Shown one piece after another: positions 1,597 to 64,000 of a DNA stretch of 64,000 nucleotides. Origin of the DNA: Bacteroidaceae bacterium (GTDB taxonomy: Bacteria; Bacteroidota; Bacteroidia; Bacteroidales; Bacteroidaceae); contig JAEDIG010000001.1 of assembly GCA_016292545.1 (NCBI GenBank), forward strand, positions 2,412-66,411, written 5' to 3'. The notes beneath the pieces were generated by a model. That model saw only the letters and a program-made list of their open reading frames with translations, was not told where the DNA came from and made no database searches. How positions within the stretch are numbered: position 1 is the first letter of the stretch; every line of letters starts with the position of its first letter. The translations under genes and the position numbers were made by a program.

Positions 1597-1642
1597 CACT
1601 TCTGCATTTAACTGAACTCACAACAACAAAAAGAAAGAAACT

Positions 1643-2989: not shown

Positions 2990-3036
2990 AAGACGGGGAA
3001 TCCGATGGATGTCAAACGAATAAATGTCATTAGAAT

Positions 3037-4314: not shown

Positions 4315-4367
4315 CTTAGAGAACTGAGCTTAGAGAGCTGAGCTTAGAGAATTGAGCTTAGAGCTTA
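4313..4367. repeat. 14-bp tandem repeat, ~3.6 copies (AGCTTAGAGA-NN-TG)
   Basis: Units read directly: AGCTTAGAGAACTG (4313-4326), AGCTTAGAGAGCTG (4327-4340), AGCTTAGAGAATTG (4341-4354), then partial AGCTTAGAG. Begins inside the stop codon of the A2 permease. Absent from the equivalent A1/B1 spacer (1597-1642). Confidence 0.9.
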
Positions 4368-4398
4368 AAGACAAAACGATAGCAATAACAGAAACGAT

Positions 4399-7231: not shown

Positions 7232-7244
7232 CTACCTTTGCAAC

Positions 7245-8588: not shown

Positions 8589-9751
8589 TGATGACGCACA
8601 CGGGATGGTTTCTGCTGATTGTGGTGTTTGTGGCCGTGGTGGCGGTGCTGCTGTGGTGGTATGCGGTGCGTCCTCTGCGCACCATCGCCAGGGGGGTGGA
8701 CCTCTTGCGCGAGCAGGATTTTGCCAGCAGGATGGCTCCTGTGTCCAATCCGTGGGCCAACCGCATCGTGGAACTTTTCAACCGTATGATGGACCAGCTG
8801 CGCGACGAACGGTTGCGGCTGAGGGAGCAAAACCATTTCCTGGACCTGCTGGTGCAGGCATCTCCCATGGGGGTGGTGCTCATGGATCTGGACGGACACA
8901 TCACCGGCACCAATCCTGCCGCCGACACCCTGCTGGCCGACCCTTGGCTGCGCTCACGCATACTGGCTGTGCCCAGGGGAAAGACACAGGTGCTGAGGCA
9001 GGGAGGCAGGCGCATCCTGCGCCTGAGCCACCTCACCTTTCTGGACCGTGGTTTCCACCATCCTTTCCTGCTCATAGAGAGTCTGTCAGAAGAGGTGAGC
9101 AGGGCTGAGCGTGAGGCATACGGGCGTGTGATACGCATGATAAGCCATGAGGTGAACAACACGCTGGCCGGTGCGGGCAGTCTGCTCGACCTAGCCTGTC
9201 AGGATGCCGTATCGCCCGAGCAGCGCGACATGTTGCTCACCTGTGGCAGCCGCTATCGCCAGATGGCCGACTTTGTCACACGTCTGGCCGATGTGGTGCG
9301 CATCCCCGCTCCTGTGAAGGAGCAGGTGGTGGTGCAGGACTTTGTCTTGCATCAAAGCCGTTTCCTGGAAACCTTGTGCAGGCAGACGGGCGACATGCGT
9401 CTCCGCCTTTCCCTTGCCACTGATCCTCTCAGGGTGAGCATGGACACCACGCTTATGGAACAGGTGCTCATCAATGTGGTGAAGAATGCCTGCGAGAGCA
9501 GCCCTGGGGGCAGCGAGATAGTGGTGGAGGTGACCACATGCCCGGCTTCACTGATGGTGCTGGACCATGGCAGGGGCATCAGTGCCCAGGAGGAAGAACT
9601 GCTTTTCACTCCCTTCCATTCCACCAAGCCCACGGGGCAGGGCTTGGGTCTGATGCTTGTACAGGAGGTGCTTTCGCGCCATGGTTTCCCCTTTTCACTC
9701 CATACACATGACGATGGCATCACGGTGTTCCGCATCGATTTCCAGCAGTAG
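8585..9751 (+). CDS. Sensor histidine kinase (TM + HAMP + HisKA + HATPase_c)
   Basis: ATGA overlap with the regulator stop. TM helix then HAMP-like segment, H-box ISHEVNNTLAG, N-box VLINVVKNACES, G-boxes DHGRGI and GQGLGLMLV. Confidence 0.85.
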   Translation: MMMTHTGWFLLIVVFVAVVAVLLWWYAVRPLRTIARGVDLLREQDFASRMAPVSNPWANRIVELFNRMMDQLRDERLRLREQNHFLDLLVQASPMGVVLMDLDGHITGTNPAADTLLADPWLRSRILAVPRGKTQVLRQGGRRILRLSHLTFLDRGFHHPFLLIESLSEEVSRAEREAYGRVIRMISHEVNNTLAGAGSLLDLACQDAVSPEQRDMLLTCGSRYRQMADFVTRLADVVRIPAPVKEQVVVQDFVLHQSRFLETLCRQTGDMRLRLSLATDPLRVSMDTTLMEQVLINVVKNACESSPGGSEIVVEVTTCPASLMVLDHGRGISAQEEELLFTPFHSTKPTGQGLGLMLVQEVLSRHGFPFSLHTHDDGITVFRIDFQQ

Positions 9752-19062: not shown

Positions 19063-19266
19063 GGTTTTGTGTCTGTAGAAGGTTTTTCGTGGGCAAAGAT
19101 AAGGAATTTTGGTGAATAAACAAAGGAAATCCAGGAAAATTCGCACTTTAATTCATTTACATTTTATTTGCTCATGATGGGTATACATTTATTGTATATC
19201 AAATGATTATATTTTAATTAGACTTATATTTTTTCTTTTTGCGTATGACATGCGAATTATTTTTCC

Positions 19267-19274
19267 TAATTTTG
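19267..19274 (+). promoter_or_regulatory. Candidate -7 promoter box (TAATTTTG) of the sus-like operon
   Basis: Exact match to the Bacteroidetes TAnnTTTG consensus 50 nt upstream of ATG 19324. TTTG at 19238-19241 is a possible -33 element, though the spacing is somewhat long. Confidence 0.4.
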
Positions 19275-19323
19275 CAGCTGGAAATCTTCCGCAATCTAAC
19301 CACGAATACATCAACAACGAAAC

Positions 19324-21207
19324 ATGAATACACGGAATCTTAAAAAGGTTTTGCTCACGTTGGGGCTTTTCAATCTGCTCCCGTGGGTGTCTGTCATGGC
19401 AGGCAAGAAAGAGAAATGTGAAGTCAGTGAGATGCATCCTACCTTTTGGTGGGCAGGTATGCAGAATCCCAGATTGCAAGTGCTCATCTATGGCACGGGC
19501 CTTGATGGCATAGTGCCTGAACTCAAGGGAGCAGAGGGCATCAGCATCGATGAGGTGGTGGATGTGCCCAACAAGCACTACATCATTCTTTACCTCAACA
19601 CCAAGAATGCGCTCCCGCAGCAGTTCAGCATTCTGCTCAAGGACGGCAACAAAGTGGTGAAGACGCTCCCCTATGAACTGAGGAAAAGCAGTGTAGGCAG
19701 GGTGGAGAGCTTTGATGCCAGCGATGTGGTGTATCTGCTCATGCCCGACCGCTTTGCCACAGGCACAACCGATGCAGAGAAGAAGCAGATGTATGCCGGC
19801 ATGAAGGAAAGCAGCTGGGGACAGGAGGACATGGCCCGCCATGGAGGCGACCTCAAGGGGTTGACTGCACACCTCGACTATCTGCAGGATCTGGGAATCA
19901 CGGCTATATGGCCCACCCCCACATTGGTGAACGACATGCAGAAGGAAACATACCACGGCTATGCCATTACCAATTATTATGAAACCGACCCCCGGTTTGG
20001 CACCAACGAGGACTATTGCCGCTTTGTCAGCGAGGCACACAAGCGTGGCATCAAGGTAATCAAGGACATCGTCTTCAACCATTGCGGGTCGGAAAACTTC
20101 CTGTTCCGCGACAGACCTGCCGATGACTGGTTCTGCTACAACAGCCAGTACAATCAAACCACCTACAAGACAGGAGCTGTGGGCGATCCTCATGCCTCCG
20201 GGCACGACCGGAAGCTGGCCGTAGACGGCTGGTTTACGCAGTTCATGCCAGACTTCAACGGACGCAACCCTCTGGTGGCCGACTATCTCATCCAGGCCAG
20301 CATGTTCTGGATAGAGTATGCGGGAATCGACGGCATACGGCAGGACACCTATCCCTATAACGACTTCGACTTCATGCGCAGATGGTGTCTCGACATCGAA
20401 CGCCAATATCCCGGCTTCAACATCGTGGGTGAGACATGGATCAACAATGCCGTGGGTGTGAGCTATTGGCAGAAGGGAAGCCCGCTGGCAGCCCCCCGCA
20501 ATTCGGAACTGAAGACGGTGATGGATTTCCCGTTGATGTATATGCTCACCAGTTGTGTGGACGAGGAAAGCGACTCCTGGGACAATGGGTTTGCACGGCT
20601 GTATGAGCTTATGTCGATGGACCGTGTCTATGCCGACACGGGCCATCTGCTCACCTTCCTGGCCAATCATGACACCAACCGCTTCCAGCCCACCGAGGAG
20701 AAGGCCATGAATGTGACGCGCTACAAGCAGGCACTGACGCTGTTGCTCACGCTGCGTGGCATTCCCCAGCTTTATTATGGCGACGAGATAGGCATGTATG
20801 CCAACAAGAGTGTCAACGACGGTGCGCTCCGCCAGAACTTTCCTGGCGGATGGCCTGGTGACAAGAACAATGCCTTTACGGCCGACGGCAGAACCAAGTT
20901 GCAGGCCGAATACCATGATTTTACCCGGAAACTGCTGAACTGGCGCAAGGGAAACCGCGCGGTAGCATACGGAACACTGACTCATTTTCCTGTGCGCGAG
21001 GGTATATATGTATATGCCCGTCAGTGGGAAGGAAAGACTGTTACCGTGGTAATGAACGGTACCAAGGAACAGCAGCGCATAACCACCGACTATTATCGGG
21101 AAGTGATGCCCGCAAGCAAAGCACACGAGGTGCTGACGGGAACAGACGTGGAGATTGCAGACATGTTGCAGCTGGAGCCCAGGGAAATCATGATTCTGGA
21201 ATTCTGA
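19324..21207 (+). CDS. susA: GH13 neopullulanase/cyclomaltodextrinase-like alpha-amylase (SusA-like)
   Basis: GH13 conserved regions DIVFNHCG (I), GIDGIRQDT (II), VGETW (III), FLANHD (IV). Has a signal peptide. First gene of the sus-like operon. Confidence 0.88.
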   Translation: MNTRNLKKVLLTLGLFNLLPWVSVMAGKKEKCEVSEMHPTFWWAGMQNPRLQVLIYGTGLDGIVPELKGAEGISIDEVVDVPNKHYIILYLNTKNALPQQFSILLKDGNKVVKTLPYELRKSSVGRVESFDASDVVYLLMPDRFATGTTDAEKKQMYAGMKESSWGQEDMARHGGDLKGLTAHLDYLQDLGITAIWPTPTLVNDMQKETYHGYAITNYYETDPRFGTNEDYCRFVSEAHKRGIKVIKDIVFNHCGSENFLFRDRPADDWFCYNSQYNQTTYKTGAVGDPHASGHDRKLAVDGWFTQFMPDFNGRNPLVADYLIQASMFWIEYAGIDGIRQDTYPYNDFDFMRRWCLDIERQYPGFNIVGETWINNAVGVSYWQKGSPLAAPRNSELKTVMDFPLMYMLTSCVDEESDSWDNGFARLYELMSMDRVYADTGHLLTFLANHDTNRFQPTEEKAMNVTRYKQALTLLLTLRGIPQLYYGDEIGMYANKSVNDGALRQNFPGGWPGDKNNAFTADGRTKLQAEYHDFTRKLLNWRKGNRAVAYGTLTHFPVREGIYVYARQWEGKTVTVVMNGTKEQQRITTDYYREVMPASKAHEVLTGTDVEIADMLQLEPREIMILEF

Positions 21208-52046: not shown

Positions 52047-53058
52047 GCCTGGAGGAGATTGCCGAAGAGATGCGGGTGAGGGGCACAGAGGCGCACCAGG
52101 ACAGCAACACCAGCATGGGATAGATAAGGAAAGGATAGCGGAAACTGTAGACAAACGGAGAGAAAAGGTAATAGGCAAAGAAGGTGTGGCAGAGCCATAG
52201 GGACGTGGACTGCCGGCCCATGGCCAAAAGAAAGGCACTGGGGCGGCGCGGTGCGATGACGCACCAGAGCAGCACGAACAGGCAGGCGAACACGGGGTTG
52301 GGCAGCACCCATCCCATCGACATGCGAAGCACACACAGCAAAAGGAGTGCAAGCCCCGCCAGCCTGCGCGACCGCAGTCCCAGACGGGCGTGCATGAAAG
52401 CCCGGAACCTGGAGGGAATGTGGTGGATGTGGCTCAATGCCCCACATAGGAACACCAGAAGCAGCTGCGCCACCTCATTGGCCAGGCTGAGCAGGGCACA
52501 ATGGTCGAACCACGGTGCATAGAGGCGGTAGGATACATCGGAAAGCAGATAAAGCAGCACAGCCATGCCCGATGTGACAGCGCATCCACGGCGGGCATAA
52601 AGGGCACGGAAAAGCAGCGGAGACACCAGAGACAACACCACATAGGGGCGCAGGAACCACCACTCGTGGTTGTAGGAGCAGCTCCATCCCACCATGTTCA
52701 GGCAGAAATCCCACACACCACCGGGATAAACCTGCGGTTTCAGCAGGCATCCCAGTGCCACAAAAGGCAACAGCACCACCCAATAATGGATGTAAAGCGG
52801 AACCAGACGGAGAGCGGCACGGGAAAAACCGAATCCCCTCTTTTCTGCACTGGCAGCCAGTCCGTAGCCACTCAGGAAGATGTAGACATACACACACCAG
52901 GCAGCCACACGGCTCATGGCATACACCAATGGCAGCCCTCCAGGAAAATGCAGCAACGTGATGCACGAGGCCACGCGCTCCGGTGTGTTGAAGAGGTGAA
53001 GGAACAGCATCATCAGAATGGCTATTCCCTTGAGCTGGAGGCTGTCGGTCCGTGTCAT
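52036..53058 (-). CDS. Acyltransferase family 3 membrane protein
   Basis: N-terminus LQLKGIAILMMLFLHLFN. About 10 TM helices across 340 aa. Confidence 0.7.
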   Translation of the reverse strand: MTRTDSLQLKGIAILMMLFLHLFNTPERVASCITLLHFPGGLPLVYAMSRVAAWCVYVYIFLSGYGLAASAEKRGFGFSRAALRLVPLYIHYWVVLLPFVALGCLLKPQVYPGGVWDFCLNMVGWSCSYNHEWWFLRPYVVLSLVSPLLFRALYARRGCAVTSGMAVLLYLLSDVSYRLYAPWFDHCALLSLANEVAQLLLVFLCGALSHIHHIPSRFRAFMHARLGLRSRRLAGLALLLLCVLRMSMGWVLPNPVFACLFVLLWCVIAPRRPSAFLLAMGRQSTSLWLCHTFFAYYLFSPFVYSFRYPFLIYPMLVLLSWCASVPLTRISSAISSRLTI

Positions 53059-53088
53059 GATCCTCTATCCCTTGCAGACGACGGTGCG

Positions 53089-55113
53089 TCAATCCTTTCC
53101 GGAAAAGTGGTTCAGGCGTGCCACATACTGACGCGCGTGGCGGTAGGTGCTCTCCACCTTGCCGTTGATTACGTGGCCGAAACCCTTCTTTGCCCCCGGA
53201 ATGAACGAGGTGTTGACTATGTGGTGGATTTCAATGCCGTTGTTGCAAGGCACCTCCACGGAATTCTCCAGCCTGATGTCGTGTATCAGCACATCATAGA
53301 TTCCTATGCCAAAAGCCCTGTGGGAGCGCACATGGTCGGCCACCTTGTATGCGGCATAACCGTTGCGTGTGCCGTTTTCACTCATGAACACACTTTGCGT
53401 GCCTGCATCGTAGGGTGTCTCGCACTGATAAAAGTAGACAAGACCGTTTTCGCCGTTCCACAGCGTCTGGTACTTCTGGAAATGTTCATTGAAGAGCCCG
53501 TAGATGGTGATGTTGTTCCCGTTGACCACCAGTCCATGGTTGGCCGTGTTCACATCCCACCCCACGGAGTTCTTCACGCCGTGGTCGGCACGCCAAATCC
53601 AGAAATGGTCCCCCACCACATCGTTGCTGTTGATTTCGAGTGCGGTGTCTACATGTGTCTTCCGGGGCACAAAGCCTCCGATGCGGAAAAACATATCGGA
53701 GAGGACAATGGGATTCTGGCTGTGTCTTCTGGTCGTGCCCTTGTCCCCCACCTTCAGGAGCGTGCGTGTGGAATGATGGGCATCAAAGAGTATGGACGCC
53801 AACCGCACGCCATCGATGTCGTCAATCTTTATGGCCACCTCCGCACCATCCGGCGGAACGATAGTAGCCCATCCCAGTCCCATGACAATGGTGCCTGGAA
53901 CCGACACGACGAGCGGCTGGTCCAGCAGATATATGCCTGGGGTCAGCAGCAGGTGCTTCCCTTTGGCAAGCGCGGCATTCATTTCGGCGGCTGTGGTGGA
54001 AGGTTTGGCCACAAGAAACGAGTCCAGCACGTCCAGCACATCGCCCTCGCCCATCGATGCGGCTGTGTACGACACGCCCTTGCTACTCTGCCGGATGGCC
54101 GGACGGAACACCTTGTAGCGGCCGTCATCACCCATGAAGAGGAACGGTTTCTCGCTGACCAGCGGGGTATAGGTCTCAAATGTCACATTCCCGCCTTTGT
54201 CCCAGTCGGAGTCCACATAAGTATCCTTCGCAGCCTGCTCACCCAGTTCCACGCCTGTGAAGACAAAGTTGTAGGCCCCCTCGGTAAATCTCCCGCGCCC
54301 CTGTCGGAGCAGGCTGTTGCGTGTAAACCATTGCTGCTGTCCGTCAGATCCCACAGGCGCGTCAAAGATGCAGTCAGCCGTAAAGCCGCCGCTCACCCAA
54401 CCGTTTTTCCATTGGTTCCTGACCGTTCGCTGCGAGTAGATTCTGCGGAACGGGGCAGCCTGCGACACTGCCCAGTTGAACATCTTGTCATGCTCATACG
54501 AAGCTTCACCCACGACAGAAAGGTTCTCCAGCGACCGCCAGAACGTGCAGGTTCCGTTGTCGTTTGCCAGATGGGGAGGTGTGTGTATGTTGTCGATCTT
54601 CACATCGAACGGCACTTTACCCAGTCCTGCCACATGGGTGTAGAACCCCACGTTGAACAATCCTGCCGATGTGTAATCACCAGGCTTGAACATCAGCGCG
54701 TAGCGCCCCGTCCCCATCTCGGCACGAAACATCTCCTTATGTATGGCAGCTATGTCCTTGCCGATGGCCTCGGGTGAATCCTGTGGGCTGTAGATATGCA
54801 CGTCATCGCCAAACAGTTCCTGTTCGGCCGACATCTGTGCCACAGTGTCGCCCTTCTCGTCGAGCACCAGATAATAATAGGAATAAGGGCTCCCCTTTGC
54901 CTTTTTGTCCACGAATTCTGTTTTCTTTGTGGTGCCTATGGCACGATATTCCGCATACCGGCCGTTCGACCGCATCACGGTGTATTTACCTGGCTTTCCG
55001 TCGAATGAGATTGTAATGCAGTTTTTACCGGGACGGACACCTGCAGATGCCGTTGTCGCCCCCATCAGCAAGGCGGCCACACAAAGGCCTGTCACATATT
55101 TCGAGCGTTTCAT
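53089..55113 (-). CDS. Secreted right-handed beta-helix (pectate-lyase-fold) protein, putative glycoside hydrolase
   Basis: Signal peptide MKRSKYVTGLCVAALLMGATTASA; an alternative ATG lies at 55125. An N-terminal small beta domain is followed by repetitive beta-helix-like segments (FWRSLENLSVVG, WAVSQAAPFRRIY). Family not assigned. Confidence 0.55.
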   Translation of the reverse strand: MKRSKYVTGLCVAALLMGATTASAGVRPGKNCITISFDGKPGKYTVMRSNGRYAEYRAIGTTKKTEFVDKKAKGSPYSYYYLVLDEKGDTVAQMSAEQELFGDDVHIYSPQDSPEAIGKDIAAIHKEMFRAEMGTGRYALMFKPGDYTSAGLFNVGFYTHVAGLGKVPFDVKIDNIHTPPHLANDNGTCTFWRSLENLSVVGEASYEHDKMFNWAVSQAAPFRRIYSQRTVRNQWKNGWVSGGFTADCIFDAPVGSDGQQQWFTRNSLLRQGRGRFTEGAYNFVFTGVELGEQAAKDTYVDSDWDKGGNVTFETYTPLVSEKPFLFMGDDGRYKVFRPAIRQSSKGVSYTAASMGEGDVLDVLDSFLVAKPSTTAAEMNAALAKGKHLLLTPGIYLLDQPLVVSVPGTIVMGLGWATIVPPDGAEVAIKIDDIDGVRLASILFDAHHSTRTLLKVGDKGTTRRHSQNPIVLSDMFFRIGGFVPRKTHVDTALEINSNDVVGDHFWIWRADHGVKNSVGWDVNTANHGLVVNGNNITIYGLFNEHFQKYQTLWNGENGLVYFYQCETPYDAGTQSVFMSENGTRNGYAAYKVADHVRSHRAFGIGIYDVLIHDIRLENSVEVPCNNGIEIHHIVNTSFIPGAKKGFGHVINGKVESTYRHARQYVARLNHFSGKD

Positions 55114-56060
55114 GTCATTGAACATATATATATTTTTTTACTTTGTAATAATCATCGGTGTTCCCACCCATCATCTTTAAGAGCATGCCTCAATCGTCAA
55201 CAAACAATGCTCCACCTGTCGTTTCTTCTTCAATTATTTGGCAAAAATAAATAAAAATAATTTATTTACCCTTATTCCGCACAACCTTTTTGCTCAAACC
55301 AGACAATCTTTTAACATTTGGCCCGGTTCTCGTAGCGTTGTCCAACGGACTGGTTGCGGAGGTTCAACGTCTGAATTGCCGTGGAGGGAAAAAGACAAGA
55401 ATTCCGAGAAACGAATTGCCATAAAACGACATTAGTTAGCAAAACAAGTCAGTTTTTGTTCCAAAATTGAGCCAAAACACCCTTTTGGCATCATTAAATT
55501 GCAGATTCTCGTCCATTTATGTGAGAGTCTACATTTATTTTTATATCTTTGTGGCCAAATACTGACAATTCTTTCTAAGAAAAGTCTATAAGGATAAGAA
55601 TGATTTCTGATGTTAGCAGTTAAAGAAAAGCATTTTAAGTCCGTTAAGACTGACGCTTCATTGTATAATGGGCAACCGACGACAAACCGAATGAAGAAGC
55701 CAAGTTCACTTGGATTATGCCGAGGTGCGAAGGAGGAAGGCAACAGCCAACCGACTGACACCGGCTCGATGTGTCACAGTGCAGAAGTTACATCCAGCAC
55801 GCCCCCCATCTTGAAATGCAAGGATGGGGTGTTGGTAGAGAATGTGCCTACAGAAAACAAGCAATGGCTTGTCCTTCGTGTGTCTTATGGTAGAATTTTC
55901 AAGGCAAAGACGTTAGTTGTAGGCAAAGGTTATAAAATTAGTAAATGGTGCATAAATACAGCATAGCCATATTTGCAAATTCTCGCCTTAATTCTGATTT
56001 CTTGAGAGTAAACATCTGAGAACTTTTGGTTAGCAAGAATGGGGAGATACAAAATTACAA

Positions 56061-59000
56061 ATGATAAATCAAAACAACGATATGATAAACAACGATACAC
56101 TCAAAAAAATATTATCCATATTTCTGTCCTTGAAAAAAGAATCATTACCTGAAAAAGGTGAAGGATGGGTTAATATGGCTAATTTTGGTTCTGCCTTGCT
56201 CAAGGCTGGCATTAACTATAAAGCGTTGGGATATGAAAAGCTTAATGAATTCGTTATGAAGTCTGATGCGTTCTTAGTACATACAGATACATCTTGCAAA
56301 GTGCCTGTAAAATATATCAAGGAGAAAGAGAAACTAACAGATATTTATAGGAAACCCAGAGCTGAACGTGCGCAATCAATATACACAGCCCCTAATGAGG
56401 TTATAAAGGTAAAGCGAAGGTTGCGTCTTGACAATAATATATTTATAGGACAGTTCGCACCTCAGAGGAATGAAGGTTGGTTTACGATAACAGATATCCG
56501 TAATACTGATTTTACAAAGATTGAAGATAAGGAACGTGGTATAAAGAATCTGTCTATCTCATTCAGAAGCAACAAGGAGTTCAACCGCTATGCATACTAC
56601 AAGTTCACTTGGGTATTGCTTGGAACCGATCCTCTCAAGTTCGGTATTGACTTGCATGAGGAAATAACACCAATTTACCCCAAAGACATTGTGAGCAGTC
56701 TTTACGAGGGCATTATGCGTTATCCTGCAGGTGCGGCAAAGAAGATTACTCGTTCGCTTGATACTCTCAAAAAGCAACTTACACAAAGCGGTAAGGAAGT
56801 ATTCATCTATGAGTTGTTGCAGAATGCTAACGACTATCCTCGTCGTACAAAAATTGATGGCAAGATTCAACCTTTGCCTGTTGATGTAGAGTTCCATATT
56901 ACCGAGAACTACTTAACATTCGAGCATACAGGTGAATATTTCAATCCGAAGAATATTGCAGCTATTTGTGATATAAATGATGGCGAGAAGTCTGACAATA
57001 TCGAAGCCATCGGCTACAAAGGTATTGGTTTTAAGACAGTTTTCCTTGACAACGACTATGTTCTCCTAAATACGGGTAAATACACATTCAGGTTCGACAA
57101 GTCTGCTACGGATGTAATCAATACACCATGGCAGATCCTGCCAATCTGGACGGAATATAATGAGATCGATCATGAAATCAAGTCTGTATTCCGTCAGCAT
57201 CCTAACGAAGAGTTTAGAGTAAAGTTCGCTCTCCAACCACGATATAAGGAAATTCTGACCGACGAAGACAGAGATGATAACTACATCGATTTGTTTACCG
57301 ATGTATTTAAATCAGAGCGCGTCATATTGTTTATCCCGAACATCAAGAAGGTTAGCATCTTTATTGATGGTCAGGATGAACCGATTGTACGTGAGAAAGA
57401 CAATAAAGATTGGTGTGTATCAGATTCTCTTGTAGATGATATTCCTGAGGACATTACAGATAAGATAAACGATGTTTTGGAAAATCCAGACTCTCTTCGT
57501 TCGGATGGTTATGAGAAAATACCTGAGAAGTACATGAACTTCCGCAAGACTGCGGTAAAGTTTGCGTGCAAGAAAGCTGAAAGAAAGTTAATGCCAGTTG
57601 ATGATGCCATGCTTTATTGCTATCTGCCAGCAAAGCGGGCTGATTGGGGTTTCAATTTCCTAATGAACACCGATATGGTGCCCAACGGACAGCGTGATGA
57701 TATTGAGGATATCGAGCTCAATCACGTTATTGCTCGTATTGCAGGTAAACAGTTCTTTTATTGGATCAAGCAGCTTATTGAAAGCAAAGAATACGACCTT
57801 GACTCTATCTTTGCACTTATCCCAGACTTTGATGAGTGCAAGAAGAGACGCGTGTATAAGACGTTTATAGAGGAGTTCCAGGAAGAATTTGAAAAACTCA
57901 TAAAAGAAGAGCCTTTTGTTCCATGCGTTGATAAGGATGGTGAACAAACCTTTGAATGCATCGACAATATTATTAACGACATGACTGGCATGACAGCGAA
58001 CGGAGTCATTTCAGACGAAGACTTCATAATTCTTATGGAGTTGGGTGACTACTCCTTGCCAGTTGACGAGTTAAGACAATCGGAGGCATTCATGGGTTTC
58101 TTGTACAAGCATTCTCCTTCGAGCCTTAATGTAAAGGTTGATGCTGTTGTAAAGAAATGTGAGGAAACTGATTTCCAGACATGGTTGACAGTTCCCGAAA
58201 ACAATACACGATTTATAAGACATTGGTTGAGTGAGGATGAACTAAACGAGTTTGCTAAGAAAAATATATTTATTGAATACGAAGGCGATTTGTTTACAGC
58301 AGGAAGTCTCTACTATGATTTTGACACGAATTGTAATGGAATAGGATTCTTGCGTAAATTTGTACCGCATCTTTGCGAGGCATCAAGAGCAAATTTTGAG
58401 GAAGATGAAAATTGGAAATCATTTGCAGACAAGTATTTCCTGTCTTTCTCTGCTGCGTCTATGATTACAGATTGCATTCTATCCAATGAGGATGCTATGG
58501 CGTTGCTTAACGTGCCAAGCAATTCTGTTGCATTCTATCGTTATCTTGCAGTAAAGGAAGTTGATTTAAAGGCGAACAAGACAAAGATTCCGTACATTAC
58601 TGAGGATGGTGGTGCAAGTACAGACTATACCAATTATCACTACTTCTTCAACGAAGATGCTCATGCCTTAACACGTGAGAAATGGTTGGGCGAGAATGTT
58701 ATCAACGTACTATCGCATATCTATTTTGATAGCCTGGCTGATGACGAGAAAGGTAATGTAACTGCAATATTTGCTAACCTTGGATTCAACGAATTTACCA
58801 AGGACTCCTTCATCACGACTGTCATAGTTGGCGATGCCGATTTCCGAGCAAAAGTAAACGCTGCCATAGAAAACAATTATGTTGCCAACAAAGCATTTGT
58901 TGAATATGTGTACGGTTGTGAAGTGCAGTTGAAGGAAAACGTTTTCAAGGATTATGTCTTGCGTTGTGTTGACATCCACAAAAATGAGGTATATCTTTGC

Positions 59001-62000
59001 AACGATGACGTGCGATACTTCAATCAGGATGCGTATGCTCAGAACAGCACCTATGCTGACAATACCAATCATGCTTGGTTGCAGGATAGCATGATGTATG
59101 CTCTATCGAATGATTATTTTGAAGGTCGTGAGAAGGAAGAGGTAAAGAAACTGGAATCGTTCTTGCGTCAGCAGTTTGGCGTTAAGACCTTCACAGACAA
59201 GTCGTTCTTCATAGATGTTGTAATCAAGAACAAGGCGGTTATCTATGCCAGTCTTGTTGACGAGGCAATTATGCTCACATTCTTGGAATACCTGAAGCGA
59301 GACGCAGACAGACTCTTTGATGATACTATGAGTTTCAACGACATCAAGGATATGCCTTTACTTGCCTACGACGGAACCATAGTAAGAGCAAGAGAACTGA
59401 ATATCCAGTATATCGAATACAACGAGGGCGCAAAGATTCTGTGCGAGAAAGCATGGTGTCCGAAGACGTATGTTGTGCTCTCACAGAAATATACCGATGA
59501 TTTCTCTCAGGATATGCGTCAGCTGTTCAAGATTGTGAAGTTTGACATCAATACCACAACTGACATCCTTGCTCAGAACGCAAACTTGCGCCAATCGGTT
59601 AATGTTATAAACAATAACGTTGATTTCTGGCGATGGGTCAAGGTAAACCAGAAGCAAATTGCATATGTTGATAAGTTCAAGACTATTCCGTTGCTTGACA
59701 ATAACAACGCGCTTATCAATTGTGCATCGCTTTACATTTCTGACACCTATCAGCAGGAACAAATTGAGGCGTTGGTAACTAAGTATGTAAAAGAGGCGCA
59801 GTTCGTGTCTTCGTCTTACATCGAAACCGCCAATGAGAACGAGAAGGTAGAGTGGATGAAATTGTTTAGGAAACTCGGTCTTAAGTCCGATAACAAGGAT
59901 ATTCTTTTCTCAGACATCTTGCCTAAGCTTTCAACTATTGAGACTGAGTCTTTGGATTCGGTTGTAGCGATGATGACCAAGCACTTTAAAGACCTGAAGG
60001 ATAAATGGGCAGAAAGGAAATACCAAATTATGCAGTTGAGAGTTCGTACTCAATATGCTGGTTATAAGACTCTTGATCAGGTAATAATCGTCAACATGGA
60101 TGAGGATTCTGTATCTGAACCATTCAAGTACATCACGCTTGCTAACGAGGTTCATCCCGATATTCTAAAGGCAAATAAGGACTTGCTTCATGCTATCTCT
60201 GAAGAGTACGGTAATCGCAATCTCATTACCACAAAGCAAATGTGGATTGACGCAAAGGTTAAGGATTATCTTGCAATGTTTGCTGCCGATGAGAATAGCG
60301 TTGCAGACATTCACATTCAGTTTGTACGTGAAGTAGCTAAGATACAGAGTGAGTATGACATAAATGACACACTTCGTAAGCAGATAAAGTATCTGGTCAA
60401 GTCAAATGAAACGACATACAAGTTTGCTCATGAACTGACACTTGGAACAGAATATTCTCCAACGTGCGACTTTGAGGCAAATCGTGTGTCTGAATTGTCG
60501 TATCTTTCTGACACTTACATATTCGAAGGCAACAAGGATATCATTAAGCAATATTTCAAAGCGGAGAACGTGCATCAAAATATGACGCGAGAGGACTTGA
60601 AGTATCTCGCAAACCGCACATTTGCTTGTTATTTCTGGTCGAAATGTTTCTCTCATCGCTTGGGCGAATATGAATCATGGGTGGAAGATGGATGTTTCAA
60701 TAACCGCGTGTGCATACCAACAGAGAATTCTGTTCAAAAGCCGGAGTTGTTGTATGCACCTCACATAGCTGGTTATGCTGTTCGTGCCAAGGTACCTCAA
60801 TGGCAAGAGAAGGTTCCTTGCAAAGCTATTGTTGACTCTATTGACAATCGTGATGCTCGTGAATTATTTGAGAAGATCAACTTCTGTAAGGCTCTCTCTT
60901 TTGAAGATTGCCTTTATTACCTTGCTCGTGTTACGCATCCAAGAGAGGAAGAAACTCATTTCCGAAGCATAGTGATTAATTGGATGCTGTCTTCGCCTGT
61001 TCCAGATGAGACTTTGGTTGACAACTATCGTAAAACGCCAACTGCAGAATGGCGTAATGGTAAGGGGCAGAAGAAGCATATTACGGAACTTTATGCTATC
61101 CATCCAGATTCGACACAGGAAAGGAATATCTTCCGTGGCGATGAGTTTGTTATGCAGACAAGTGCTTTCCCTTATGATACAGATTTGTTTGTCAAGGCCT
61201 GCAACATACTGAAGATAAAATGTCTGACAAGTTCTAATTTTGTGGCAACACCTATAGGCAAACAAGATGAAACAGCTGATATGGTTGCCATACTCAGACC
61301 TCGTCTGCTTATCTTGTCGGCTATCGAAAACCCAGATCGATTCCAAGAACTCTACGAACGCTATAATACAAAGCTGTCGCAGTATCATTTTGTTGTATGT
61401 GAAAAGATAGACCTCGGTTATGATACTATACATAATGATGTAGAGCGTATCTATAACGATGACAATCACCTTTATTATGTAAGCTCATGGAAGCATAATC
61501 GTACCTTTACAAAGTTCTGTAGTAGATTGAAGCGACTGGTAGGTTTTGACGTGTATGATAATGTATGTGAAGACGTTCTTGATGATAGCGTTTCTGTAGA
61601 AACGTGCATCGAAAAGTATTGCTCTTCGCTTGCATACGATGAAAAGTTCCGCGCTTATCTCAGATCGTTGGATTTGACCATAAACGTTGAGCCAGAGGAA
61701 GAAGGACCTATCGAAACAGGAAACGATTACTATAGCAATGCTACGAATGAACCAACAGATTCTGCTATAGAAGCAACTACAGAGACATCAACAGAAAATC
61801 AGCATGTTGACGATACGGAAACTTTTCGCGAGGATGACAATATTGGTGCACCAAATAAAGATGTAACGTCAAGACCTGTTAACGAACTTGAAGTTAGGGA
61901 AGAAGCAGAGACATCACCAAAAGAACTTATTCAAACCGCTTCGCAGCAGCCAACTTCTTACTCTCGTCCACAACAACAGTCGCAACAAGCCGAATCACCA

Positions 62001-62984
62001 GTTGGTCAAACAACGTCATCTACAGCAGAGGAAGAGTCAGAAGATGACCTTGGTCAGTATGACACATATGAACAGGTTGATGAAGAGGATATTGAAGACT
62101 ACGATGACACAGATGAAACAGACGATGTAGAAGCTGATGTTGATGAAGATGTTGACACAACGGATAATGCCAGCACAACGTCTTCTAATACTCATACGTC
62201 TAACACGTCTCACGCTTCATCAAACAAGCCTCATAAGGATTATAATCCTGACCGTAATGGGTACATGGGATCTGTTGATAAGGACAAGGATTACCAACCA
62301 GTTGGCGACAGGCCTTACAAACCTCGTACACGTAAGCATCCAAAGATTTTCACCAAAAAGGAATTAGAATGCCTTCGCTCACATGGAACGCCTCTTGAAC
62401 TGGAATCATTACCACCAACGAGGGAGGAAATAGACCTCTTAGCTCAATGTAACATCAAGCCAGAGCAGATTGCCGACACAAACTATCTTGCTCAGTTGCG
62501 TATGTACCAGAACCTTAGAAATGAGATGCACACAGAACCTGAGGAAACAATGGAGGAGTTCGTGCGTAATGCGAGTGATGTAACTTTACACAAACTTAAA
62601 GATGGCAAATACATTCATACTTGTAGTGCTGCTCGTGGCGTGATGTATGTTTCTCCTTCTGTATGGAATAAGATGGTTGATAACAAGTGGAAAATTTGCG
62701 TTTATCTTGATGGACAAGGCAAGAACTTCCATTACATTAACAACGCCAATGAATTCTTGAAACTCGTAGAAAAAGACGATGTTGTTATCAAGATTACCGG
62801 CAAGGAGAAAGTTGATGTGGTAAGGGCTCTTTATACAGGCATACTTGAAAATGCCAAAGGTACTGCATACACCTTGATTCGTGTGGCAGCTCGTACAAAT
62901 ATGGATGCCGTATTCGCTCACTATGTTGGTGCTATGGCAGAAGCGGAAGATGGTAACGATGATTATAACGATAACGACTATTGA
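56061..62984 (+). CDS. Giant (2307 aa) OST-HTH + sacsin/NO VEIN-type GHKL ATPase protein with acidic disordered tract
   Basis: Uninterrupted 6.9-kb ORF in AT-rich DNA. OST-HTH-like GWVNMANFGSALLKAGINYKALGYEKLNEFVMKS (aa ~35-68). GHKL motif I ELLQNANDY (nt 56811-56837). ATP-lid motif GYKGIGFKTVF (nt 57012-57044). Acidic/polar low-complexity tract at aa ~1876-2095. Confidence 0.9.
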   Translation: MINQNNDMINNDTLKKILSIFLSLKKESLPEKGEGWVNMANFGSALLKAGINYKALGYEKLNEFVMKSDAFLVHTDTSCKVPVKYIKEKEKLTDIYRKPRAERAQSIYTAPNEVIKVKRRLRLDNNIFIGQFAPQRNEGWFTITDIRNTDFTKIEDKERGIKNLSISFRSNKEFNRYAYYKFTWVLLGTDPLKFGIDLHEEITPIYPKDIVSSLYEGIMRYPAGAAKKITRSLDTLKKQLTQSGKEVFIYELLQNANDYPRRTKIDGKIQPLPVDVEFHITENYLTFEHTGEYFNPKNIAAICDINDGEKSDNIEAIGYKGIGFKTVFLDNDYVLLNTGKYTFRFDKSATDVINTPWQILPIWTEYNEIDHEIKSVFRQHPNEEFRVKFALQPRYKEILTDEDRDDNYIDLFTDVFKSERVILFIPNIKKVSIFIDGQDEPIVREKDNKDWCVSDSLVDDIPEDITDKINDVLENPDSLRSDGYEKIPEKYMNFRKTAVKFACKKAERKLMPVDDAMLYCYLPAKRADWGFNFLMNTDMVPNGQRDDIEDIELNHVIARIAGKQFFYWIKQLIESKEYDLDSIFALIPDFDECKKRRVYKTFIEEFQEEFEKLIKEEPFVPCVDKDGEQTFECIDNIINDMTGMTANGVISDEDFIILMELGDYSLPVDELRQSEAFMGFLYKHSPSSLNVKVDAVVKKCEETDFQTWLTVPENNTRFIRHWLSEDELNEFAKKNIFIEYEGDLFTAGSLYYDFDTNCNGIGFLRKFVPHLCEASRANFEEDENWKSFADKYFLSFSAASMITDCILSNEDAMALLNVPSNSVAFYRYLAVKEVDLKANKTKIPYITEDGGASTDYTNYHYFFNEDAHALTREKWLGENVINVLSHIYFDSLADDEKGNVTAIFANLGFNEFTKDSFITTVIVGDADFRAKVNAAIENNYVANKAFVEYVYGCEVQLKENVFKDYVLRCVDIHKNEVYLCNDDVRYFNQDAYAQNSTYADNTNHAWLQDSMMYALSNDYFEGREKEEVKKLESFLRQQFGVKTFTDKSFFIDVVIKNKAVIYASLVDEAIMLTFLEYLKRDADRLFDDTMSFNDIKDMPLLAYDGTIVRARELNIQYIEYNEGAKILCEKAWCPKTYVVLSQKYTDDFSQDMRQLFKIVKFDINTTTDILAQNANLRQSVNVINNNVDFWRWVKVNQKQIAYVDKFKTIPLLDNNNALINCASLYISDTYQQEQIEALVTKYVKEAQFVSSSYIETANENEKVEWMKLFRKLGLKSDNKDILFSDILPKLSTIETESLDSVVAMMTKHFKDLKDKWAERKYQIMQLRVRTQYAGYKTLDQVIIVNMDEDSVSEPFKYITLANEVHPDILKANKDLLHAISEEYGNRNLITTKQMWIDAKVKDYLAMFAADENSVADIHIQFVREVAKIQSEYDINDTLRKQIKYLVKSNETTYKFAHELTLGTEYSPTCDFEANRVSELSYLSDTYIFEGNKDIIKQYFKAENVHQNMTREDLKYLANRTFACYFWSKCFSHRLGEYESWVEDGCFNNRVCIPTENSVQKPELLYAPHIAGYAVRAKVPQWQEKVPCKAIVDSIDNRDARELFEKINFCKALSFEDCLYYLARVTHPREEETHFRSIVINWMLSSPVPDETLVDNYRKTPTAEWRNGKGQKKHITELYAIHPDSTQERNIFRGDEFVMQTSAFPYDTDLFVKACNILKIKCLTSSNFVATPIGKQDETADMVAILRPRLLILSAIENPDRFQELYERYNTKLSQYHFVVCEKIDLGYDTIHNDVERIYNDDNHLYYVSSWKHNRTFTKFCSRLKRLVGFDVYDNVCEDVLDDSVSVETCIEKYCSSLAYDEKFRAYLRSLDLTINVEPEEEGPIETGNDYYSNATNEPTDSAIEATTETSTENQHVDDTETFREDDNIGAPNKDVTSRPVNELEVREEAETSPKELIQTASQQPTSYSRPQQQSQQAESPVGQTTSSTAEEESEDDLGQYDTYEQVDEEDIEDYDDTDETDDVEADVDEDVDTTDNASTTSSNTHTSNTSHASSNKPHKDYNPDRNGYMGSVDKDKDYQPVGDRPYKPRTRKHPKIFTKKELECLRSHGTPLELESLPPTREEIDLLAQCNIKPEQIADTNYLAQLRMYQNLRNEMHTEPEETMEEFVRNASDVTLHKLKDGKYIHTCSAARGVMYVSPSVWNKMVDNKWKICVYLDGQGKNFHYINNANEFLKLVEKDDVVIKITGKEKVDVVRALYTGILENAKGTAYTLIRVAARTNMDAVFAHYVGAMAEAEDGNDDYNDNDY

Positions 62985-64000
62985 TGATGATTGACAATAT
63001 CAAACTTGCAAACTATAAGTCATTCTTTGCTGACCAGGTGAAGGAGGCTATCGACGAGCAACAAAAAATCAATCGCTCGCAGATGCGGAACTTATTCAAG
63101 ACAGGTGAATTATCGCTTGCTTATGTTGATTCCATTCAGCATGAGACAGGCATGATTATCCTCAAATGCCCTCGTCGTATGGCTCCACGCTTGAAAGTTC
63201 TGAAGGGCGTGTGCATAATTAAGAAAGGTGCTAAGCAAGCATTAGGTGAACACGTTACGGATTGGATTTGCCGTTGGGAGGAGTTTGTTGACAATAAGGA
63301 TTTTCATTCTCCTGGTTCTGACATGACTCCAATGTACTATGTTCATACTGGTGATTCCAACTATGACTATGTTGCATGCTCTGGATTCAGTTTTAAGTTG
63401 TACGATATCTTGTCAAAGGCGTTGGCTGATGGCAAAAGTCTTTCACTTATCGTCCATAATCCATTTCCTCCTGTAGAGTATTTCCGCAACCTTGCCAGCT
63501 ACATGGATGCATTCTCTTCAAACGAGGAATTGAACCTTGAACCGGCTATAGATTATGAGGAATGGACACCCGAGGAACTTGCGTTTGATGAACAGAAGCC
63601 AACAGGTATCTCTGACACAATCATAGACACGCTCGCTAATGAACATTGTTGTATCGTACAAGGTCCTCCGGGAACTGGTAAGAGTTACACCATTGCTTCT
63701 GTGATTTCATCGTATCTTGATGCTGGTAAAACCGTCTGCGTCACCACCATGGCGAACAAGGGCCTTATCGAGTTGATAAAGCAGAAGCCTTTGCAGAAGT
63801 ATGTGAAGGGAGGTCGTGTCAGCAAGACAAATCTCTCAATTGACGAACGCAAACAGGTGTCAGGTGTAAAAGCTGCCTCTGCCGACTTGCAGGTTCCTGG
63901 TGGCGAAATGCTCTGTGCGACAAACTATCAGTTGTCAAGCGTTTTTAGCGAAAAGAAGATGACTTTGTATGGTTTGCCACAATACGATTTAGTAGTCATA
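62984..64000 (+). CDS. SF1 (Upf1/DNA2-like, AAA_11-type) helicase, N-terminal part (3' end outside window)
   Basis: Not in the ORF track because it has no stop in the window. Hand translation from ATG 62984 (TGATG overlap with the upstream stop) is open for 339 codons: MMIDNIKLANYKSFFADQVKEAIDEQQ... Walker A VQGPPGTGKSYT at 63662-63685. Confidence 0.8.
   Translation, partial: MMIDNIKLANYKSFFADQVKEAIDEQQKINRSQMRNLFKTGELSLAYVDSIQHETGMIILKCPRRMAPRLKVLKGVCIIKKGAKQALGEHVTDWICRWEEFVDNKDFHSPGSDMTPMYYVHTGDSNYDYVACSGFSFKLYDILSKALADGKSLSLIVHNPFPPVEYFRNLASYMDAFSSNEELNLEPAIDYEEWTPEELAFDEQKPTGISDTIIDTLANEHCCIVQGPPGTGKSYTIASVISSYLDAGKTVCVTTMANKGLIELIKQKPLQKYVKGGRVSKTNLSIDERKQVSGVKAASADLQVPGGEMLCATNYQLSSVFSEKKMTLYGLPQYDLVVI

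Follow-up and report, generated by a model that had tools for sequence, protein, structure and literature searches.

A 2307-codon reading frame in a low-GC end of the Bacteroidaceae contig overlaps, at its stop codon, the start of a helicase gene, and the question that the locus raises is what such a pair is for. We consider it most likely (probability of about 0.6) that the two genes form a two-component immune system of the Tiamat/TmtA superfamily, directed against phages or mobile elements. The window, by which we mean the whole 64,000-nucleotide stretch of DNA that was analysed, ends within the second gene, and the remainder of that gene was read from the ortholog in locus L001 (L001:11072-13417, 99% identical).

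The first-pass annotation described a long coding frame translationally coupled to an SF1 helicase on a compositional island, and that description stands. An ORF scan recovered the frame at 56061-62984 on the plus strand, and no ORF in an alternative frame within it exceeds 201 aa (60864-61469, minus strand). The stop codon TGA at 62982-62984 overlaps the ATG at 62984, within TTGATGATGATT; gene calls of the helicase orthologs begin at the second ATG, 62987. Homologs of the giant protein align from M8 (56082), which is therefore its probable true start. GC content is 0.39-0.43 from approximately 55-56 kb to the end of the window versus 0.54-0.61 elsewhere in it, falling from 0.57 to 0.48 to 0.39 over 52-58 kb, and the last high-GC gene stops at 55125. 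The features of the locus are the following.

55130..56060 (no strand): left edge of the low-GC island, placed by the GC drop, and non-coding leader of the giant gene
56061..62984 (+): giant TmtA-superfamily gene, 2307 aa, from the ORF, its homologs and PADLOC TmtA PDLC03972
56082..56408 (+): swappable N-terminal cassette, here a predicted OST-HTH/LOTUS winged helix (Pfam match aa 16-77, 56106-56291)
56409..56681 (+): conserved domain between cassette and ATPase, aa 117-207 (KRRLRLxNNxFIGQF...YYKFTWVLL), from homolog alignment
56682..58037 (+): predicted sacsin-type GHKL ATPase module common to TmtA, aa 208-659 (PADLOC TmtA, NCBIfam P_loop_sacsin)
56811-56837 (+): GHKL motif I, ELLQNANDY, starting at aa 251
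57012-57044 (+): glycine lid, GYKGIGFKTVF, starting at aa 318
58038..60572 (+): family-specific middle region, aa 660-1504, conserved in homologs
60573..61562 (+): second TmtA-homologous region, aa 1505-1834 (PADLOC TmtA PDLC03972)
61671..62285 (+): acidic low-complexity linker, aa 1871-2075, from composition
62298..62981 (+): C-terminal domain, aa 2080-2285, and acidic tail, aa 2286-2307, 87-94% conserved
62984..64000 (+): 5' part of the partner gene, 339 of approximately 782 codons
62984-63601 (+): helicase N-terminal domain, within the partner gene
63662-63685 (+): helicase Walker A, GPPGTGKS, starting at aa 227 of the downstream ORF

The leader region of the window contains no HTH_3 gene, unlike loci L001-L003. 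The closest relative, in a Muribaculaceae MAG (L008), has a flank 82-95% identical to that of the window from position 55349 on, the point at which the L008 contig starts.

The two motifs that had been read as Bergerat-fold motif I and glycine lid are invariant in an alignment of the giant protein with 20 relatives of 26-46% identity (21 sequences), including residues E251, N255, D258 and G318-T326; the motif II position reads His-Thr-Gly, not the classical DxGxG. NCBIfam P_loop_sacsin scores 63.3 bits (cut-off 50), and Pfam SACS, with 25.9 bits, falls short of its gathering score of 32.8 and is matched by 16 of the 21 family members at E<=1e-3. By its motif I and lid the protein classifies as a sacsin-type GHKL ATPase of the Bergerat fold, and its GHKL module is predicted to bind ATP. 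The ELxQNAxD motif I and GxxGxGFxS/T lid are those of the sacsin, NO VEIN and paraMORC-type enzymes, but the giant lacks the HEPN, DnaJ and repeated SRR units of sacsin.

A named family had escaped the first-pass annotation. The PADLOC TmtA model PDLC03972, one of the Tiamat models PDLC03964-03972, matches aa 208-659 with E=6e-86 (profile positions 4-419 of 1302) and aa 1505-1834 with E=1.4e-14 (positions 751-1075). The score is 287.6 bits for the whole protein and 51 bits for the second region alone, and the matches cover approximately 57% of the profile and 34% of the giant, whereas canonical TmtA proteins reach 970-1220 bits over profile positions 1-1130. Judged by these profiles, the giant is an expanded, divergent branch of the TmtA (Tiamat) superfamily. 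Between the two matches, the approximately 840-aa middle region of the giant corresponds to only approximately 330 profile positions. The middle region is 77-90% conserved in close homologs and can still be aligned across relatives with 26-46% overall identity, and it has no PADLOC or Pfam match and no PDB sequence match.

For the N-terminus, which had been called OST-HTH-like, Pfam OST-HTH (PF12872) scores 25.4 bits on the first 210 aa alone, above the gathering score of 23.8, but 22.0 bits on the whole protein, slightly below it; the profile matches 5 of the 21 distant family members (best E=6.9e-8), and a homologous fragment carries a precomputed PF12872 match. The cassette thus classifies as OST-HTH, if only marginally when the full protein is scored. 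Domains of this type are predicted to bind RNA, and their bacterial versions are stereotypically fused to PIN-like RNases (PMC2848206). Alignments indicate that the cassette is hypervariable and exchanged at a fixed junction: DNA similarity of the giant to its orthologs begins only at 56405-56412, cassette identity is 35-74% where that of the body is 78-94%, and homologs either carry one of two unrelated domains of approximately 140 aa in its place (P0019 class, P0086) or have no cassette (P0105, P0102, P0120). The adjoining aa 117-207 domain, which has no Pfam match and precedes the segment matched by the TmtA profile, is almost invariant in close homologs.

Toward the C-terminus, the linker is 28% D+E and 5% K+R with a net charge of -47, identity falls within it to 58-65%, and acidity is shared by its counterparts in distant family members (net -18 to -48); the linker is probably disordered. 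The C-terminal domain that follows has an AF2 model with an overall pLDDT of 67.6, with blocks spanning residues 31-160 at 75-93. Its best Foldseek matches in PDB and BFVD are PD-(D/E)xK-fold nucleases, with E>=7e-3 and TM<=0.5, so that the modelled likeness to this fold is weak, and the domain contains no D...(D/E)xK motif and instead conserves H2186, C2188 and S2189. The acidic tail ends in an aromatic residue (...DDYNDNDY). Profile searches of the whole protein and of its parts gave no DUF3883 match.

The partner gene carries the GPPGTGKS motif where it had been reported, with the Walker A lysine at K233 in the ORF counted from 62984. The 782-aa L001 ortholog consists of an N-terminal domain, an Upf1/Sen1-like SF1B core and a PIN_4 domain. 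The core matches AAA_11 (50.5 bits), AAA_19 and AAA_12 (40.8 bits, gathering score 27), its PDB sequence matches are Sen1 (1.5e-11), IGHMBP2 and Upf1, and 37 loci conserve motifs I, II, III, V and VI, of which only motif I falls inside the window. By AAA_11 and AAA_12, the motifs and the nearest structures, the partner classifies as an Upf1-like SF1B helicase. PIN_4 (PF13638) scores 72.9 bits in the ortholog (E=4e-20, gathering score 21.9), and IIDTNV, DELD, (P/A)D(N/C) and TSDN, including their acidic residues, are conserved in 22 PIN-bearing helicases. The structure model of the helicase is of low confidence (pLDDT 54.6); Foldseek matched it to the PIN domains of SMG6, with a target-normalised TM of 0.5-0.6, and AF0591, and matched its core to Upf1. 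The effector had seemed not to be evident, with the proviso that it might lie beyond the window. The proviso was apt: in the ortholog the helicase ends in a predicted PIN_4 RNase, and the source genome should encode the same domain just past base 64000.

The first-pass annotation also suggested looking for co-occurrence of the homologs with this helicase type, and the linkage proved to be strong. The helicase is directly downstream in all 33 loci that have both the C-terminal domain of the giant and downstream DNA, in Bacteroidota, Eggerthellaceae, Anaerovoracaceae, Butyricicoccaceae and Kiritimatiellae, and in most loci the giant stop and helicase start overlap or lie a few nucleotides apart. 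In five loci, including Segatella copri and a Methanomethylophilaceae archaeon, the SF1 helicase is fused to the giant. The linkage is obligate and conserved across phyla. In L016, L020, L022, L025 and L034 the giant body is only 22-30% identical to that of the window, whereas the C-terminal domain and helicase are 58-84% identical, as is the PIN domain in four of them (the L025 contig ends inside the helicase); the C-terminal domain, helicase and PIN therefore travel as one unit. A specific pairing of the C-terminal domain with the helicase N-terminal domain was considered and is not supported, since the latter also occurs with 11 TmtA-like partners without that C-terminal domain. The C-terminal module of the helicase varies in turn, being PIN, a Swt1-type HEPN, which is another RNase fold (L040), Sel1 repeats or none. 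Helicases without a nuclease are often followed by a gene for a DruE-like helicase, directly so in L019, L024, L042, L045, L047 and L089; the L019 protein has 2,098 aa and scores 327 bits with DruE.

We propose that gene 1 would act as sensor and scaffold and gene 2 as effector. The N-terminal cassette, here OST-HTH, would be the exchangeable ligand-binding part, the sacsin-type GHKL ATPase an ATP-driven conformational or dimerisation switch, and the acidic disordered segment a long tether, with the C-terminal domain and its aromatic-tipped tail perhaps docking the helicase. Gene 2 would provide a 5'-3' SF1B helicase of the Upf1/Sen1 kind, preceded by an N-terminal domain of its own and followed by an SMG6-type PIN RNase. 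Sensing of invader nucleic acid, most likely RNA, or of invader protein by the cassette or body would switch the GHKL state and free or activate the tethered helicase-nuclease, which would move along transcripts and cut them. The outcome may be selective destruction of invader RNA or shutdown of the infected cell.

A DNA-targeting, restriction-like system is an unlikely but serious competitor. In such a system the GHKL ATPase would clamp foreign DNA as MORC and paraMORC proteins do, and a Dna2-like partner would unwind DNA with its SF1B helicase and cut flaps or single strands with a PIN-like nuclease. RNA is the likelier but not the only candidate target, in that Upf1-like helicases also act on DNA and PIN-like folds include DNA flap nucleases, and the best structural matches of the helicase include Dna2. 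The variants in which a nuclease-less helicase is followed by a DruE-like one hint in the same direction, DNA being the generally assumed target of Druantia-type systems. Canonical Tiamat is also listed with a C-terminal PD-(D/E)xK nuclease (preprint 10.1101/2024.10.26.620412), the fold to which the C-terminal domain of the giant is weakly similar, but in the giant the catalytic residues of that fold are missing. The PIN domain, moreover, belongs to the PIN_4/COG1875 group of SMG6, Swt1 and PhoH2, in which characterised members are RNases, and the PIN of SMG6 cuts single-stranded RNA but not single-stranded DNA (PMC5499597). Its alternative is a Swt1-type HEPN RNase, the cassette is a predicted RNA binder, and by sequence the helicase lies nearest to the RNA helicases Sen1, IGHMBP2 and Upf1.

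A further reading is that of a prokaryotic RNA-surveillance immune machine, in which a LOTUS/OST-HTH GHKL ATPase licenses an Upf1-like helicase with an SMG6-type PIN or Swt1-type HEPN RNase. This is speculative and improbable. PIN and core matches resemble eukaryotic SMG6 and Upf1, with Swt1-type HEPN as the alternative effector, and PhoH2 joins a PIN_4 domain of the same PIN_4/COG1875 clade to an RNA helicase. In PhoH2, however, the domain order is the reverse and the helicase is of the PhoH family, and neither PhoH2 nor Upf1 with SMG6 or Swt1 has the giant ATPase partner or the mobile, defence-type context found here. If true, the pair would be a bacterial counterpart, and possibly an evolutionary source, of eukaryotic pairings such as LOTUS-helicase and Upf1-SMG6, and it would also show how Tiamat proteins work, with the ATPase as sensor and a nuclease that is either part of the protein or contributed by a partner.

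The genomic context bears on a further alternative, that the pair is a selfish module serving integrative mobilizable elements through addiction, exclusion of competitors or control of their own RNA. In L001-L003 the pair lies amid integrase, relaxase/MobC, primase and HTH genes, in many assemblies it is alone on contigs of approximately 9.5-10 kb, and in Porphyromonas it is flanked by a duplication spaced 10.5 kb. Defence systems are routinely carried by mobile elements, so this context does not discriminate. Against the selfish reading, no mobility genes lie near the pair in the window and in L004-L007, megablast against plasmid and phage collections gave no match, and only five matches were found in 2.9 million viral contigs. 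The pair also adjoins other defence-type genes, family-locus neighbours including DruE-like helicase, AEP-TOTE/PrimPol helicase and SLFN_AlbA_2 genes, and exclusion of mobile elements would itself be a form of the immune explanation. We consider a purely selfish role improbable. The conserved linkage, swappable modules and defence-island and mobile-element contexts are instead in keeping with a conflict system, the candidate role that the first-pass annotation proposed.

Of the known systems, Tiamat is the nearest. Tiamat (TmtA) was reportedly described by Millman et al. in 2022 as a single-gene anti-phage system. Reviews and genome surveys list it among anti-phage defence systems of unknown mechanism, and family membership accordingly says little on mechanism. 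Both proteins have the N-terminal sacsin-type GHKL module and the second conserved region (profile 751-1075), and both are found in defence islands. The giant, however, is approximately 1,000 aa larger, scores 288 bits where canonical members score approximately 1,000-1,200, and adds an N-terminal cassette, an expanded middle, an acidic linker and a distinct C-terminal domain, canonical TmtA proteins carrying varied C-terminal domains of their own (e.g., caspase-like in L065). Tiamat is also by definition a single gene, unlike the giant with its obligate helicase-RNase partner. That gene 1 is an ordinary single-gene Tiamat beside an unrelated neighbour or a separate system is very hard to maintain: PADLOC and DefenseFinder do define Tiamat by TmtA alone, and an adjacent SF1 helicase is missing from most of the canonical-size TmtA loci fetched (40 loci had no helicase, in a set that includes truncated contigs), but the 33/33 adjacency, stop/start overlap, five fusions and co-inheritance of the 3' end of the giant with the helicase already contradict it. 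A canonical-size TmtA of Prevotella pallens (1184 bits) has a helicase-PIN neighbour of the same kind.

Mokosh was also considered and does not accommodate the pair. It is defined by an Upf1-like helicase and a PLD nuclease, type I having an STK domain as well, and its type II protein MkoC resembles the partner in joining a COG1112-type SF1 helicase to a nuclease in one polypeptide. The helicase core matches PADLOC MkoA (3e-23) and MkoC (7e-14) through helicase motifs only, the nuclease is PIN or HEPN rather than PLD, neither protein has a PLD domain, and Mokosh has no GHKL partner. Its authors hypothesise recognition of phage RNA. Druantia is approached by the loci with a DruE-like gene after the SF1 helicase, but the window-type module has no DruE, and DruE is the only Druantia-named model among the PADLOC matches of the proteins tested. 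The earlier statement that no named system fits thus fails for the giant, which has a named superfamily, but holds for the combination: the pairing is absent from PADLOC v2, Pfam and NCBIfam, and we found no published description of it. What is new is the two-gene system and not its main protein family. Because its parts are divided, this branch of TmtA opens the mechanism of Tiamat to testing, with the swappable cassette as candidate specificity determinant, the conserved GHKL module as putative switch and the effector on a separate, recognisable helicase-RNase that is at times fused, HEPN-swapped or accompanied by a DruE-like protein.

That the pair is a housekeeping chaperone or a machine for RNA quality control, as the sacsin-type ATPase domain and the Upf1-like helicase with SMG6-like PIN might suggest from eukaryotic sacsin and Upf1/SMG6, is scarcely credible given the patchy distribution driven by horizontal transfer, the foreign composition, carriage by mobile elements, hypervariable, swappable modules and the mere 178 clusters (at 50% identity) among 1.84 billion representatives. 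We found 1845 homologs of the giant, of which the best 120 are full-length with 73-94% identity. Human oral and gut Bacteroidota carry the module in abundance, in clusters of thousands of member sequences, and it may have consequences there for phage therapy and horizontal transfer. Experiments are feasible because the module occurs in cultured strains, among them Phocaeicola massiliensis DSM 17679, Prevotella veroralis and Porphyromonas vaginalis, and in variant form in Hallella multisaccharivorax DSM 17128, which has no PIN, and in Segatella copri, where the genes are fused.

The decisive result on the identity of the 2307-aa giant protein is its match to TmtA, the Tiamat protein. The first-pass annotation could match its architecture to no named system; instead, the PADLOC TmtA model PDLC03972 aligns residues 208-659 of the giant with profile positions 4-419 of 1302 (E = 6e-86) and, in a separate match, residues 1505-1834 with positions 751-1075 (E = 1.4e-14), which puts the giant in the TmtA superfamily. 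Canonical TmtA proteins of 1266-1661 aa, fetched from Nostoc, Chryseobacterium, Paenibacillus and Prevotella pallens, reach 970-1220 bits, with matches spanning profile positions 1-1130. Judged by sequence, the matches and this comparison place the giant on a divergent and expanded branch within the TmtA superfamily; it is not an orphan. The proposed GHKL ATPase is borne out by NCBIfam P_loop_sacsin on residues 248-332 (63.3 bits, cut-off 50), with Pfam SACS sub-threshold at 25.9 bits (threshold 32.8), and the motifs ELLQNANDY and GYKGIGFKTVF lie at residues 251 and 318 as claimed. The suggested OST-HTH domain is marginal when the whole protein is searched (22.0 bits against a threshold of 23.8) and is recovered with the N-terminal 210 aa (25.4 bits); it also occurs in five of 21 distant relatives, at best with E = 6.9e-8. 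To the TmtA core the giant adds the following.

Residues 8-116, N-terminal cassette
Residues 117-207, conserved domain without fold assignment
Residues 660-1504, about 840 residues against about 330 profile positions
Acidic linker of 205 aa, net charge -47
Conserved C-terminal domain, and acidic tail with a terminal Tyr

Residues 660-1504 have no match in Pfam, PADLOC or the PDB, and in Pfam and PADLOC the same is true of the C-terminal domain, residues 117-247 and both alternative N-terminal cassettes of homologs. A PDB sequence search with the C-terminal domain alone returned nothing meaningful, and one with the whole-family profile returned low-complexity noise only, recovering not even the sacsin and Hsp90 ATPase domains. 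Residues 1108-2307 found only 178 clusters among 1.84 billion representative proteins, and most full-length matches are giants of 2000-2750 aa, 23-43% identical; an alignment of the window giant with 20 of them shows the GHKL residues to be invariant. The best fold matches of the C-terminal domain in two libraries are weak ones to PD-(D/E)xK nucleases, and the catalytic motif is absent; the structure models of this domain and of the helicase were both built on shallow alignments. A nuclease has been reported for canonical Tiamat (preprint 10.1101/2024.10.26.620412), and the C-terminal domain of the giant may be a degenerate relic of it, with catalysis passed to the partner protein. A canonical TmtA of Paenibacillus brevis (L065:9863-14845, 969 bits) bears a caspase-like domain at its C terminus (PADLOC 'caspase', E = 3.6e-10), and C-terminal domains in TmtA proteins are therefore interchangeable.

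The gene structure read from the window sequence was correct. The giant ORF occupies 56061-62984 on the plus strand, and no ORF in the other frames inside it exceeds 201 aa, although 56082 (M8) is a likelier start than 56061, because homologs begin at this position. Its TGA overlaps the ATG of the next gene (TTGATGATGATT), the frame of which stays open up to the window end and has GPPGTGKS at residue 227. Both genes lie in a compositional island that begins at about 55-56 kb and reaches the window end; its GC content is 0.39-0.43, compared with 0.54-0.61 across the 54 kb before. A 118-aa ORF at 55610-55966 (plus strand), situated in the leader of the giant gene, is probably no gene, having a chance Bowman-Birk match only and no counterpart in other loci. 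A small HTH_3 gene lies just upstream of the giant in L001-L003 and is absent from the window.

The partnership between the giant and the SF1 helicase extends to its homologs. The pair is intact in all three contexts of close homologs. L001 is a mobilizable element carrying an integrase and a relaxase, L002/L003 represent an element of Prevotella veroralis, and in L004-L007 the pair stands alone on the Porphyromonas vaginalis chromosome between WbqC gene duplicates. A scan of species-representative genomes gave 80 loci, and HMM counts cover all 92 fetched loci. The helicase is directly downstream in 33 of 33 loci encoding the giant's C-terminal domain, Eggerthellaceae, Anaerovoracaceae, Butyricicoccaceae and Kiritimatiellae included; one further locus has this domain at a contig end and is uninformative. 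In 11 loci the same helicase family follows either giants without the C-terminal domain (L044, L091) or TmtA-like proteins that are shorter, at about 1300-1800 aa. In five others, Segatella copri and a Methanomethylophilaceae archaeon among them, an SF1 helicase is fused to the giant C terminus, replacing the linker and C-terminal domain. Of the 92 loci, 40 are without helicase; most of these have TmtA-like proteins of canonical size, and truncated contigs are also among them. At most loci the gene 1 stop and gene 2 start overlap or are a few nucleotides apart.

Five loci (L016, L020, L022, L025, L034) are mosaic: the giant body is just 22-30% identical to that of the window, whereas the C-terminal domain is 68-75% and the helicase 58-74% identical; the PIN nuclease domain of the helicase is 72-84% identical except in L025, whose contig stops inside the helicase. 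The 3' part of gene 1 thus forms one inherited block with gene 2. The contexts, the 33 of 33 loci, the fusions, the junctions and the mosaic inheritance together exclude a chance neighborhood. That the giant's C-terminal domain and the helicase N-terminal domain occur specifically together, as tblastn suggested, was rejected by HMM searches, because the latter domain also accompanies the 11 partners lacking the former. The archaeal fusion, a 2697-aa protein encoded by L038 (Candidatus Methanomethylophilaceae archaeon, a gut methanogen; ORF 416-8509), implies that the system has passed from one domain of life to another.

The first-pass annotation saw no evident effector, and the candidate effector does lie beyond the window end, as a PIN_4 RNase at the helicase C terminus. 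The window helicase fragment is 99% identical to residues 1-338 of a 782-aa protein in L001, which consists of an N-terminal domain without fold assignment (about 205 aa), an SF1B core (AAA_11, AAA_19, AAA_12) and a C-terminal PIN_4 domain (residues 652-773; 72.9 bits, E = 4e-20); from such orthologs we infer a PIN domain in the window's own genome. By sequence, the closest solved structures to the L001 protein are Sen1, IGHMBP2 and Upf1. In an AF2 model of low confidence (pLDDT 54.6), the core retrieves Sen1, IGHMBP2, Dna2 and Upf1, and the tail matches PIN domains, those of AF0591 and SMG6. Across 37 loci the helicase keeps its motifs I, II, III, V and VI, and the acidic PIN residues are conserved in 22 of 22 PIN-bearing copies. 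PADLOC recognizes the core alone, as MkoA/MkoC-like; a Mokosh identity was ruled out because there is no PLD domain.

Parts of the module have been exchanged. In comparisons of the window with its orthologs (80-97% identical), similarity at the DNA level begins no earlier than 56405-56412, some 115 codons inside the gene, and the cassette, 5' of a fixed junction (KRRLRL...), is 35-74% identical, against 78-94% for the body. Some homologs lack the cassette or have in its place either of two unrelated domains (about 140 aa each) without Pfam match; a search with the N-terminal cassette alone found short fragments of the giant's family only and no sign of sharing with other systems. The helicase C-terminal module is PIN_4 at most loci, a Swt1-type HEPN in one Kiritimatiellae genome, Sel1 repeats in one Anaerovoracaceae genome, or none. 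Nuclease-less helicases are often followed by a gene for a helicase resembling DruE of Druantia (L019, L024, L042, L045, L047, L089), exemplified by L019:18886-25179, which encodes 2,098 aa with DEAD, Helicase_C and MrfA Zn-binding domains (PADLOC DruE, 327 bits). This suggests a three-gene variant joining Tiamat-like and Druantia-like components. Variation of the cassette, the helicase C terminus and the third gene is typical of immune systems. A DruE-like gene also follows the pair of TmtA-like protein and nuclease-less SF1 helicase in L058 and L085.

Beyond the domain identities, linkage, fusions, modularity and contexts, which are observed, we infer a mechanism in which gene 1 would be sensor and scaffold and gene 2 the effector. 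Specificity probably resides in the exchangeable N-terminal cassette. In the window this is an OST-HTH, a winged helix predicted to bind RNA; bacterial OST-HTH domains are stereotypically found fused to PIN-like RNases (PMC2848206). ATP-driven switching would fall to the GHKL module. The acidic tether and C-terminal domain, which travel with the helicase and are dispensable where it is fused, probably recruit or restrain it; we take the conserved acidic tail with its aromatic tip to resemble the partner-binding tip of SSB. RNA is the favored target, because the PIN_4/COG1875 members SMG6, Swt1 and PhoH2 are RNases, the alternative effector is HEPN and the nearest relatives of the helicase are RNA helicases. 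DNA, to which Dna2 among the core matches and the DruE-linked variants point, is a less favored target.

Whether the target is RNA, as we favor, or DNA, the module appears from its sequence to work like a helicase-nuclease effector governed by a large NTPase sensor. Gene 1 encodes a TmtA-superfamily member but falls outside the single-gene definition of Tiamat, and gene 2 encodes an Upf1-like helicase but falls outside the definition of Mokosh. In public records the two proteins have generic names ('sacsin N-terminal ATP-binding-like domain-containing protein', 'PIN domain-containing protein'). Tiamat is given as mechanistically unknown in reviews and genome surveys up to 2026, and the giant-helicase module offers a route into its mechanism. 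A literature search, which covered Millman 2022 in its preprint version, found no publication tying Tiamat to a helicase and none naming both 'Tiamat' and 'TmtA'. The Millman preprint does not mention Tiamat, and neither the YprA-helicase preprint nor the domain-centric discovery paper mentions Tiamat, sacsin, GHKL or HATPase. Because PADLOC v2 is a 2023 release, newer catalogues may already name the architecture.

The DNA past base 64000 is represented by the closest relative, L008, a Muribaculaceae MAG (96% identity; exact giant sequence not on record), which has its upstream flank in common with the window from 55349. Downstream of the helicase it has the following genes.

L008:10030-11697, SLFN_AlbA_2 and HATPase_c_4 gene in continuing low-GC DNA, with its start 2 nt downstream of the helicase stop codon
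L008, between the genes listed before and after, XRE-type HTH gene
L008:12132-14975, 948-aa AEP-TOTE/PrimPol and ResIII/DEAD protein (AEP-TOTE E = 4e-98) with a weak PLD-like tail

The last is a TOTE/PrimPol-type conflict gene of the same low-GC island, and its counterpart probably lies beyond window base 64000; the surroundings of the window-type copy look like a defense island. An SLFN_AlbA_2 and HATPase_c_4 gene adjoins the pair in at least five loci, L008 among them (the others being L040:17699-19153, L041:~17825-19429, L047:~8034-9494 and, on the minus strand, L010:~6138-7733), and may be an optional third component or merely a common island neighbor.

Megablast found no match in plasmid and phage collections, IMG/VR gave only five matches, and a tRNA scan for an integration site found no tRNA gene within the window. 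In Porphyromonas vaginalis, direct repeats (L004:8593-9463 and 19095-19967; same in L005-L007) surround the two-gene module; 10.5 kb apart and 88-95% identical, they duplicate part of the WbqC gene and a gene of 112-115 aa, and no integrase is found near the module in L004-L007. A large share of giant-bearing metagenomic contigs in the homolog tables measure only about 9.3-11 kb, close to the length of the pair itself. The flanks of the pair thus tend to be breakpoints in assemblies, as would suit an insertion that varies between strains or occurs in several contexts. The high-GC host part of the window (1-55000) has many long ORFs that overlap on opposite strands, as is usual for GC-rich DNA; an example is 52501-54777 (plus strand) against 53089-55125 (minus strand), of which the latter, of 678 aa with a signal-peptide-like N terminus, is probably the real gene.
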